IMG/VR virus record: IMGVR_UViG_2713896778_000023
From: a virus
Taxonomy: Duplodnaviria; Heunggongvirae; Uroviricota; Caudoviricetes
DNA length: 4,877 nt
Strand: one strand, 5' to 3'
Shown here: positions 3,001 through 4,877 of the stretch, in pieces
How the letters are laid out: each line of letters begins with the position of its first letter
Numbering within the stretch: the stretch's first letter is position 1
Program-made: the position numbers

Positions 3001-4877
3001 TGATTCATGCCATTGAATACAGAACTGATAATGCTGTATCGATGTTTGGCGGACGACCAGCCAATCACATTAAAGTTATCAACGTTCGTGGGGACAGTAT
3101 GTGTCCAACCATTGAGCCAGGAGATCTCATCTTCGTTGATGTCAGTATCAATCAGTTTGATGGAGATGGTATCTATGTATTTGGTTTTGATGATAAAATT
3201 TATGTCAAACGACTACAAATGATACCTGACAAACTACTGGTGATTTCTGATAACCAGATTTACCGTGAATGGGGAATTACCAGCGAAAATGAACACCGGT
3301 TTATGGTCTTTGGAAAGGTCTTAATCAGCCAGTCACAAACCCTTAAGCGACACAATTAACCCTTACCTCCTCATCAATTAGCCACCCGAAGGTGGCTTTT
3401 CATTACCCATAAAATTGCACATCTCGCAATAAAAAGACTTGCATGATACGCAACTTCATTTTATCTTTCTTTCCAGACCAACAAACAAGGTACTAACAAA
3501 ATTTGGTTGTAACACGGCGTATGGCACATGTGTCGTTAGCGGTCTGGGGACGTTAAAGGGGACAATCCACTCCTTGCTCGGGCAAACAAACCAGGTAGCC
3601 GGAATGTGCAAGTCAATGATGATGCTGATAAGACGCCTAACCAGCGTGGCGATCCGGTTTGACGCCTGGGAAGAGACCAGGGTGCAACGATGAGGGCATT
3701 TATGGAGCCGCGACAAAGTGTGGTGCCGTAACTGGCTAAGTGCTCTCAGCGTTGTGGTAATCCGCGAAATGGCGCGGCGGTAAGTATGGCGGGGTTACTC
3801 TTTCCCCGTTGAGGACACCGGATTGTCAGGTTGACCATACGCCTGAGTGACAACCCCACCACAACAGCCACTGCTTTGGCGGTACCAGTTTGTACACTTT
3901 CTTCCGGCTGGTACCGCTCTTTTTACAAAACAGAGAAGAGCATCACCGGACGACGGGCTCATAACCCAATCCACCCGGGCGGATGCCACCGCAGGTGTTC
4001 TTCTCTGTTTTGTGGAGAAACCAACCGACCTTGCAGGGTCGATATGATGAGGAGCAGTGCAGGAAGAAATGGCTAACGAATTTCGTGATCTGCTTGTTGA
4101 GAAATTCAAAGACAGCAAAGTAGAAACCTTTATTGGTACTTTTACCGCCTGATTTCCTTACTGCAAATGCCCCTGCGGGGGCATTTATGGAAACATAATT
4201 GACTCAATAATCGCCTGATGGCGAGGGTTTTCTTTAACCAAAATTCTGCGCGGTGCAGCGCATATACGTGGAGAACAAAATGTCATTTATTAAAACTTTT
4301 TCCGGGAAGCATTTTTATTATGACAGGATAAATAAAGACGACATCGATATTAACGATATCGCGGTTTCCCTTTCAAATATCTGTCGCTTTGCCGGTCATC
4401 TTTCGCACTTCTACAGCGTCGCCCAACATGCGGTTCTTTGCAGCCAGCTGGTACCGCAGGAATTTGCTTTTGAAGCATTAATGCATGATGCAACAGAAGC
4501 GTATTGCCAGGACATCCCCGCTCCACTGAAACGCCTTCTTCCTGACTATAAACGGATGGAAGAAAAAATTGACGCCGTAATCCGTGAGAAATACGGGTTA
4601 CCCCCAGTTATGAGTACGCCCGTGAAATATGCCGATCTTATCATGCTGGCAACCGAACGCCGCGATCTCGGGCTTGATGATGGCTCTTTCTGGCCTGTAC
4701 TGGAAGGCATCCCGGCAACAGAGATGTTCAACGTGATTCCACTGGCACCTAGCCATGCCTACGGGATGTTTATGGAACGTTTTAACGAGTTATCGGAGTT
4801 ACACAAATGCGCATGAATGTTTTCGAAATGGAAGGGTTTCTTCGCGGGAAATGTGTACCGCGAGATCTGAAAGTGAA

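Follow-up and report, generated by a model that had tools for sequence, protein, structure and literature searches.

Among the RNA elements described for phage early operons and related settings, those closest to the site treated here are intrinsic terminators, such as lambda tR', which ends the 6S RNA, and the terminators of Hfq-binding small RNAs (sRNAs), in which a U-run comes directly after a G+C-rich stem; the boxA elements of lambda nutL and nutR (CGCUCUUA) and of the rrn leaders (UGCUCUUUAACAA); and the put RNA of phage HK022, a protein-independent antiterminator RNA of two stem-loops and ~70 nt that lies just past pL (PMC9378689). Here, we investigated a hairpin with an adjoining U-tract in a 4,877-nt stretch of DNA (hereafter the window) from a tailed virus of the class Caudoviricetes (IMG/VR record IMGVR_UViG_2713896778_000023). 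An earlier note on this sequence had proposed that the hairpin at 3879-3917 is a tL1-like intrinsic terminator, a nut-like NusB/NusE loading site with a boxA on its 3' side, or both. Judging from the sequence and its homologues, we consider it likely that 3879-3917 together with 3918-3924 forms an intrinsic terminator or attenuator on the + strand, in the leader of the early-left (pL) operon of an N-less prophage.

The hairpin, here called hairpin C (3879-3917, + strand), is recognized from sequence, fold and covariation and has a perfect 10-bp stem (3879-3888/3908-3917), in which ten consecutive Watson-Crick pairs, six of them G-C, run from G3879-C3917 to G3888-C3908 (GCGGTACCAG / CTGGTACCGC). 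The stem encloses a loop of 19 nt, or of 11 nt in the predicted fold, and two G.U pairs can prolong it inwards. The U-tract UCUUUUU (3918-3924, + strand) stands directly 3' of the stem and is followed by ACAA. The RNA of 3870-3935 folds at -22.4 kcal/mol, compared with -11.9 ± 2.6 kcal/mol for 200 dinucleotide shuffles (z = -4.1), none of which folds as well, and the coordinates that the earlier note had given for stem and tail proved exact. Both hallmarks of an intrinsic terminator, a stable G+C-rich stem and a U-run directly 3' of it, are present, and the likeness to tR' and the sRNA terminators extends to the setting, between a putative early promoter under repressor control and the genes that the site would gate, with a hairpin and U-tail of the Hfq type. 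The site differs from these terminators in its loop, which in the window and its relatives is long or branched at 19-45 nt, beyond the 3-8 nt of the short-loop rule, in the U-run, which doubles as the base of the next helix, and in that no antiterminator is known in these phages. The loop of more than 8 nt is the only reason why a simple terminator scan of the window, which covered loops of 3-8 nt, did not report hairpin C. The label "tL1-like" is inexact, as the site precedes the first early-left gene, whereas lambda tL1 follows N. Searches of the window with Rfam covariance models (E <= 1) returned only C4 and isrK, both elsewhere on the - strand and neither over the leader, and ARAGORN found no tRNA in the window.

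Homologues were collected in three sets. In the first, a pattern in the invariant core of element D, a structured RNA directly downstream of the hairpin, was scanned against one genome per species and viral contigs; the second used a pattern in the 3' arm of element D that makes no assumption on the hairpin or the core and gave 128 distinct contexts (the unbiased set); the third consisted of annotated phages. Sequences less than 93% alike left 46 representatives, base pairs were counted in a 43-sequence alignment, and structures were worked out from the minimum free energy (MFE) fold, RNAalifold and these pair counts. The homologues come from Escherichia, Shigella, Salmonella, Citrobacter, Enterobacter, Kosakonia, Leclercia, Mixta, Erwinia, Klebsiella and other genera, and the stretch 3875-4025, which holds the hairpin and most of element D, occurs in 2520 of 5426 complete E. 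coli genomes (46%), in none of which it is annotated as an RNA.

Hairpin and U-run are conserved together as a structure rather than as a sequence. In 42 of the 46 representatives, T5-7 begins 1-2 nt past a hairpin of -12 to -33 kcal/mol, and a stable hairpin stands 1-3 nt before a T-run of four or more in 124 of the 128 unbiased contexts. The remaining four comprise two that have neither part and two, including one recombinant, in which the hairpin next to the T-run is disrupted; no context has the hairpin alone (0/128). The stems themselves differ among homologues (GGCGGUACCAG/CUGGUACCGCC, GGCGGCAUC/GAUGCCGC, GUCGGCGUC/GACGCCGAC, UGCCCAUC/GGUGGGCA and CUGGCGG/CCGCCAG), and in the 43-sequence alignment seven of the eight pairs of the hairpin base change on both sides, as in U-A 21 / C-G 17, A-U 24 / G-C 8 and C-G 20 / U-A 11, with 91% of the hairpin cells paired. 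For the whole structure, 90.5% of cells are paired, compared with 41-52% when partners are slid by 1-3 columns, and the observed covariation is reached in 0/500 shuffles. Conservation and compensatory changes therefore mark hairpin and U-run as a selected structure and not a chance repeat. The hairpins of relatives reach 65 nt, with loops of 19-45 nt and branched interiors of up to ~45 nt. Structure, conservation and covariation are direct observations, as is the strand, and the terminator that the earlier note had suggested is supported by the hairpin and U-tract in 124/128 contexts, the compensatory stem changes, the joint gain and loss of the two parts, and their location on the strand transcribed from the putative pL.

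The strand deserves separate mention, because the hairpin could in principle be a feature of the DNA or of the minus strand, or a chance inverted repeat; the stem contains a GGTACC palindrome, and the reverse complement of the hairpin folds too. This we regard as barely credible: none of the 200 shuffles does as well, the hairpin is kept with compensatory changes across genera, and on the minus strand no U-run follows it. Many G.U pairs of the adjoining long helix would moreover become A.C mismatches on the other strand, and the whole leader folds better on the + strand (z = -5.4) than on the - strand (z = -3.8), both of which support the + strand.

The arrangement of the locus is likewise observed directly, with the hairpin placed between the repressor gene on one side and element D and the first gene on the other. 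In SfV, ST64B and Flotzy the order is cI-like repressor gene, terminator, promoter and operators, a long leader poor in open reading frames (ORFs), hairpin, element D and first early-left gene, and mEp460 has the same order of elements, but with short annotated ORFs in the leader. Two minimal leaders, one from Mixta (L017; 1427-1740) and one designated L100 (2120-2345, - strand), lack both hairpin and U-run; here the cI-like gene, its terminator and a promoter-like site or operators are followed directly, ~20-30 nt downstream, by element D. The alignment of the window with L100 runs through terminator, operators and promoter to ~3492 and restarts at UAC|AAAAC, the start of element D, leaving in the window a block of ~430 nt (roughly 3492-3923) that is missing from L100 and consists of two non-coding modules, A (~3497-3757) and B (~3751-3873), both on the + strand, followed by the hairpin and the U-run. 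This extra block ends exactly with hairpin and U-run, and the pair accordingly behaves as the 3' end of the upstream block, as expected of a terminator. The U-run is missing in L017, L100 and a third locus, L076, although the downstream GGAGAAA is retained; it therefore goes with the hairpin and not with element D.

Upstream of the leader, a putative pL with its operators (3415-3467, + strand) can be read from the sequence and from homology to L100. Palindromes of the form TTGC-N7-GCAA lie at 3415-3429 and 3439-3453, with a third at 2627-2641 in the interval between cro and cI, and these three, which flank the repressor gene, are probably operators of the cI-like repressor at pL and at pR/pRM. 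A weak promoter-like pair consists of a -35 TTGCAT (3439-3444), a 17-nt spacer and a -10 TATCTT (3462-3467); the same stretch is homologous in L100, and the equivalent site of SfV, just past the cI terminator, is a strong TTGACA-16-CATAAT. The hexamers of the window are too weak to have been reported by a simple consensus promoter scan, and we infer that 3439-3467 is pL, in position and strength, from the operator repeats and the homology to L100 and SfV. From here an untranslated leader block of ~450 nt without a conserved ORF (3475-3924, + strand) extends to the hairpin and U-tract in which it ends. No plausible hexamers were found at conserved positions inside or just before the hairpin, and a promoter there that would drive element D alone was rejected as a candidate.

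With these parts, early-left transcription could be pictured as follows. On induction, RNA polymerase would start at the CI-controlled promoter (~3470), just past the repressor gene, and would transcribe modules A and B into ~450 nt of structured, non-coding RNA before it reaches the hairpin and U-run. A share of the transcripts would end there, giving a leader RNA of ~450 nt whose 3' end would be a hairpin and U-tail of the Hfq-binding kind, in many lineages with a single-stranded CACAAC just upstream. Polymerases that read through would continue into element D, a further hairpin (E) and the first early-left gene, and in the read-through RNA the U-run would pair with GGAGA as the base of helix P1 of element D. 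Termination as such, its efficiency and any role of the terminated RNA are what we infer from the structural observations, and the long loop suggests that termination would be partial rather than complete.

Element D, which bears on how the U-run is to be understood, is a three-way junction (3920-4018, + strand) supported by the MFE fold, RNAalifold and pair counts. It is closed by helix P1 of ~25 bp (3920-3944/3994-4018), in which 5 of 20 core pairs change on both sides (for example, G-C 24 / C-G 19), and it carries the P2 arm (3946-3978), with the apical hairpin GGG CUCAUAA CCC at 3955-3967, and P3 (3979-3992), a covarying hairpin of variable length. Within P2, the pair 3950/3974 covaries (G-C 30, G.U 6, A-U 5) and the stem P2a has compensatory variants (CCAUG/CAUGG, CCGACG/CGUCGG), both of which disfavour an alternative inner fold offered by RNAalifold that pairs CCC 3965-3967 with GGG 3977-3979. 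Hairpin E (4026-4041, + strand), with 3 of 5 pairs changing on both sides, lies between element D and the ribosome-binding site. The genes that follow element D differ (the yfdP-like MSNDR.., MNNPFFKN.. and MKLSKF..), and it is therefore a leader element and not part of one gene.

The U-tract can pair with GGAGA (4014-4018) at the base of P1, where 88% of cells are paired, and no spacing separates U-run and element D in any homologue that has both. This bears on a different account, in which hairpin C is mainly a structural, processing or protein-binding part of a larger leader RNA made up of hairpin C, element D and hairpin E, the U-run is the 5' strand of the extended base of element D, and the hairpin serves as a stabilizer or as an RNase or Hfq-type site, with termination only incidental. 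The missing spacer and the U-run:GGAGA pairing in the consensus fold speak for such an arrangement, as do the sequence conservation of the stem base and of some loop motifs and the large loops, which are atypical of terminators. We nevertheless think it unlikely, given that L017, L100 and L076, which lack the hairpin, also lack the U-run while keeping GGAGAAA, that element D occurs without the hairpin directly after a promoter, and that a stem ending 1-2 nt before five to seven U residues has the geometry of a terminator.

Some of the same features count against a terminator or attenuator as the full description of the site. With its long loop (19 nt, and a branched interior of up to ~45 nt in relatives), the site does not conform to simple rules for terminators, and it may terminate only weakly. 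Conservation of the stem base GGCGG/CCGCC and of some loop motifs, such as CCCGUGAGG in a single subgroup, goes beyond what a plain terminator needs, which hints at an added role, and part of the conservation of the U-tract could serve element D through the pairing with GGAGA 4014-4018. We found no published data on the locus, transcript 3' ends included, and no mechanism for read-through, which a strong terminator ahead of all early-left genes would require, has been identified in these phages.

The boxA-like string CGCTCTTTTTACAA (3915-3928, + strand) runs from the end of the stem through the U-tract to the opening bases of the helix that follows. The earlier note was right that the string is there; its resemblance to boxA is no better than expected by chance and is not conserved. 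As in lambda nut and the rrn leaders, an 8-nt core (CGCUCUUU) is found with ACAA nearby and a hairpin adjacent, whereas the site in the window needs one inserted base, its core is unconserved and its first bases are paired in the stem. Compared with the boxA consensus (GCUCUUUAACAA, or CGCUCUUA), the 8-nt core is exact, the 12-mer is not matched and the counts are at chance level: at three or fewer mismatches, the 12-mer GCTCTTTAACAA misses the site, because of the inserted base, and matches three other places in the window against 4.7 expected. The 8-mer core YGCTCTTW is exact only at 3915-3922, with ~0.6 exact matches expected (an estimate) in 2 x 4877 positions, and with one mismatch allowed it has 10 matches against 12.5 expected.

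A check of the homologues gave a similar picture, with the core GCTCTT in only 35 of the 128 contexts, all but one of which belong to the close subgroup of the window and mEp460. Other homologues have GTCCTTTTT, GCCCTTTTT, GCACTTTTTT or GACCTTTTT at this place, with GTCC, GCCC, GCAC or GACC in the core; the core of SfV is GUCCUUUUU, and further homologues have GCCCUUUUU, GCACUUUUUU or GACCUUUUU. Furthermore, boxA is described as a single-stranded motif (PMC2800207), while in the window the corresponding bases are paired: G3916 and C3917 take part in the pairs that close the covarying stem, and the covarying helix P1 includes A3925-A3928. Neither the 12-mer nor the 8-mer scan found a second boxA-like site on the pR side of the window, no N-like gene is annotated in the window prophage, SfII, mEp460, SfV, ST64B or Flotzy, the SfIV paper reports only Q, and the homologous hairpins have no conserved boxB-like loop motif. 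In contrast to nut, the site thus lacks a boxB-type loop, an N gene and a counterpart in the rightward operon.

Spelled out, the proposal is that NusB-NusE (S10) would be loaded at CGCUCUUUUUACAA on the 3' side as a boxA and that the hairpin would serve as boxB, in an antitermination site of the nut or rrn type. It draws on the 8-mer CGCTCTTT, which equals the rrn/lambda boxA core and has ACAA next to it, and on the benefit that protection from Rho would bring to an untranslated leader of 450-600 nt. The phages of the mEp collection are described as Nus-dependent (PMC11893012), which is a weak and indirect point; mEp460, whose hairpin stem and tail are identical to those of the window, probably belongs to this collection, judging from its name, and the paper, on mEp immunity group I, concerns a different phage group. 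Q antitermination also uses NusA. Mutation of G35, C38 or U39 of lambda nutR weakens NusB:NusE binding (PMC2800207), and the equivalent positions are kept in most homologues as CG-N-N-C-UUU, yet this pattern is the product of any stem that ends in ..CCGC before a U-run. The 12-mer fails at three mismatches and ~0.6 exact core matches are expected by chance (again an estimate); beyond the close subgroup, the two central positions of the GCUC core are variable; the motif is bound up in a stable covarying stem and a covarying helix; a partner on the pR side, an annotated N-like gene and a conserved boxB loop are all absent; and every conserved position of the string is already accounted for by hairpin, U-run and helix P1. 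A nut-like NusB/NusE site therefore appears highly improbable to us. The likeness to boxA arises because a G+C-rich stem end (..CCGC), a U-run and the CA-rich 5' arm of the next helix abut, and on this comparative evidence it is a side effect of the terminator-leader design and not a conserved signal.

The put RNA of HK022 offers a different comparison, in that put and the present site both belong to N-less phages of the lambdoid type and that element D of L017 and L100 lies 20-30 nt past a pL-like promoter, as putL does. Element D differs from put in being a three-way junction closed by a helix of ~25 bp instead of two stem-loops, and in most phages it lies downstream of the hairpin and U-run; there it is made after the termination decision, so it can neither suppress the terminator nor set read-through in cis. 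When the putL region was compared by eye, no similarity was seen, and an identity with put was rejected on this ground and on the different architecture.

If transcripts do end at the hairpin, the resulting RNA might itself have a function. AgvB, a prophage-borne sRNA with CACAACA in its 5' region and a conserved terminator, antagonizes GcvB (PMC4104026), and AgvB and AsxR resemble the RNA treated here in their prophage origin and in having CACAAC(A) upstream of a terminator hairpin and U-tail. The corresponding motif of the window, CACCACAAC (3857-3865, + strand), was noted for the recurrence of CACAAC and lies in a single-stranded stretch 5' of the hairpin; CACAAC stands at the equivalent place in many of 20 aligned divergent homologues, while several lineages are without it. 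As an extension of the terminator, the RNA ending at the hairpin could then be an Hfq-dependent regulatory RNA or sponge that acts, like AgvB, through CACAAC, an idea we hold to be quite improbable. In many lineages CACAAC precedes the hairpin by 15-35 nt; it matches the GcvB R1 target consensus CACAACA (PMC4104026), and a single-stranded stretch, a hairpin and a U-tail together have the layout of Hfq-binding sRNAs. However, AgvB and AsxR are RNAs of 51-60 nt from another location, downstream of pR' in the late region, no sequence relationship to them was seen, CACAAC is missing from several lineages, and it also recurs in the arms of long helices, where it may be a helix-forming repeat only. 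AgvB, AsxR, svsR and the Pas sRNAs were set aside as candidates for the element itself, as they occupy other prophage positions; svsR, a C0293-like sRNA, lies at the 3' end of cI in the related prophage NC-SV (PMC12803456), a place that corresponds to ~3280-3400 of the window, and the others lie in the late region.

The near-invariant apical hairpin of element D resembles the initiator tRNA. Positions 3954-3967 (CGGGCUCAUAACCC) are identical at 14/14 nt to the anticodon stem-loop of the metY initiator tRNA; in the unbiased set, the exact 14-mer occurs in 76 of 105 distinct cores and CUCAU in 100, and three cores have other loops (CCCUAA, CCCACC) on a compensated stem. Cores of this type occur in many genera of the Enterobacterales, and element D is an undescribed RNA that has no Rfam family and on which, as on its likeness to initiator tRNA, we found no literature. 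Mimics of tRNA anticodon arms exist in mRNA leaders, as in the E. coli thrS operator. Element D is like them in combining three G-C pairs of the initiator type and a CUCAUAA loop upstream of a ribosome-binding site; it differs in the location of the mimic, which is carried by an extended arm of a three-way junction and lies ~100 nt from the start codon, in that no binding partner is known, and in that 3/105 variants have other loops. Hairpin and U-run might on this basis be the 5' edge of a previously undescribed structured leader RNA (~3879-4041) with functional initiator-tRNA mimicry, which we consider unlikely; equally speculative is the thought that element D would engage the 30S P site, MetRS or, as a decoy, a VapC-type nuclease of tRNA-fMet.

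The leader, which is deleted in K-12 CPS-53, is by BLAST a mosaic of non-coding modules, and the piece from 3877 onward is common to SfV, SfIV and many other phages. Module A is 78-82% identical to the P1/P7 sequence between tRNA-Ile and ban (L004, P1, 3001-3185) and to a stretch immediately 5' of tRNA-Arg in phiV10-like phages (L005, 2501-2745), and its last bases in the window are the first of the phiV10-like tRNA-Arg (GTGGTA..). Several of its hairpins show compensatory changes, and it belongs to no Rfam family; Rfam searches at permissive thresholds on its P1 and phiV10-like relatives gave nothing overlapping the leader. Module B has a match of ~89% to PPompW-type and other coliphages and an unexpected one of 85% to an Actinobacillus pleuropneumoniae phage record (PP818812.1). 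The leader also holds a second long hairpin (3685-3754) whose arms (CAACGAUGAGGGCAUUU / AAGUGCUCUCAGCGUUG) resemble the P1 arms of element D, with a counterpart in other leaders (CACAAC..GAAAGCGCACUC / GAGUGCGCUUYCAGUUGUGG). It seems that the leader contains two related long-stem units, and alternative pairings between its CACAAC and GUUGUG repeats could occur. Coding sequences for hypothetical proteins are annotated across the leader in many E. coli and phage records (e.g., mEp460 gp36/gp37, - strand). Protein coding across 3831-4076 was rejected on account of the covarying helices and of P3, whose length changes in steps other than multiples of three; covariation and variable P3 length likewise make it probable that the calls overlapping 3879-4041 are spurious.

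Over all 4877 bases, the window has 100% identity to a prophage found in E. coli O121 strains, e.g., RM8352, and the annotation of this locus and of SfII, mEp460, SfV, ST64B and Flotzy identifies the window as the immunity region of an SfV/ST64B/mEp460-type lambdoid prophage. By the same annotation, the - strand carries a cro-like gene (2309-2569), a ymfL/cII-like gene (1765-2316) and a Rha/antirepressor gene, upstream of which Rfam places isrK (1347-1423, - strand, 56.6 bits) and the C4 antisense RNA (1235-1322, - strand, 82.8 bits). C4 and isrK upstream of the Rha/antirepressor ORF make up a control module like that of the P1 immI antirepressor inside a lambdoid immunity region; 50 N at 1674-1723 interrupt the translation of this ORF in the window. 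The + strand carries the gene for the cI-like S24 repressor (2667-3359) and its terminator, a 7-bp hairpin and T-run found by the terminator scan (3380-3404, also given as 3380-3397), the homologous site of which is annotated as a rho-independent terminator in SfII and SfV.

According to the ORF list and annotation, ~600 nt without a credible ORF follow the cI terminator, after which come a remnant first gene and yfdR. The remnant first early-left gene (4057-4152, ATG at 4069, + strand), which PGAP calls partial, lies with its Shine-Dalgarno sequence GAGGAG (4050-4055, + strand) within 4050-4152 and joins a ribosome-binding site and start of the yfdP type to the terminal ~27 codons of yfdQ; at its C-terminus, the encoded product corresponds to the end of L017's YfdQ homologue. 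The prophage of the window has lost yfdP and most of yfdQ, and a terminator-like hairpin is found at ~4163-4186, downstream of the remnant gene.

The terminator site itself is an ordinary kind of element. What it implies for this large group of N-less prophages is that their early-left genes, which in SfV and SfII include xis and int, lie behind a conserved stop signal, and this raises the question of how the phages read through it. Element D, not the terminator site, is the more valuable lead, as a strongly covarying structure that is unannotated in thousands of genomes and stands at the position of nutL in lambda and putL in HK022. The mimicry of initiator tRNA, if true, would mean a control of early-left expression or a protection of the infected cell, and element D, if functional, would represent a phage leader RNA of a new kind through which early gene control in phages of the SfV/ST64B type could be approached.

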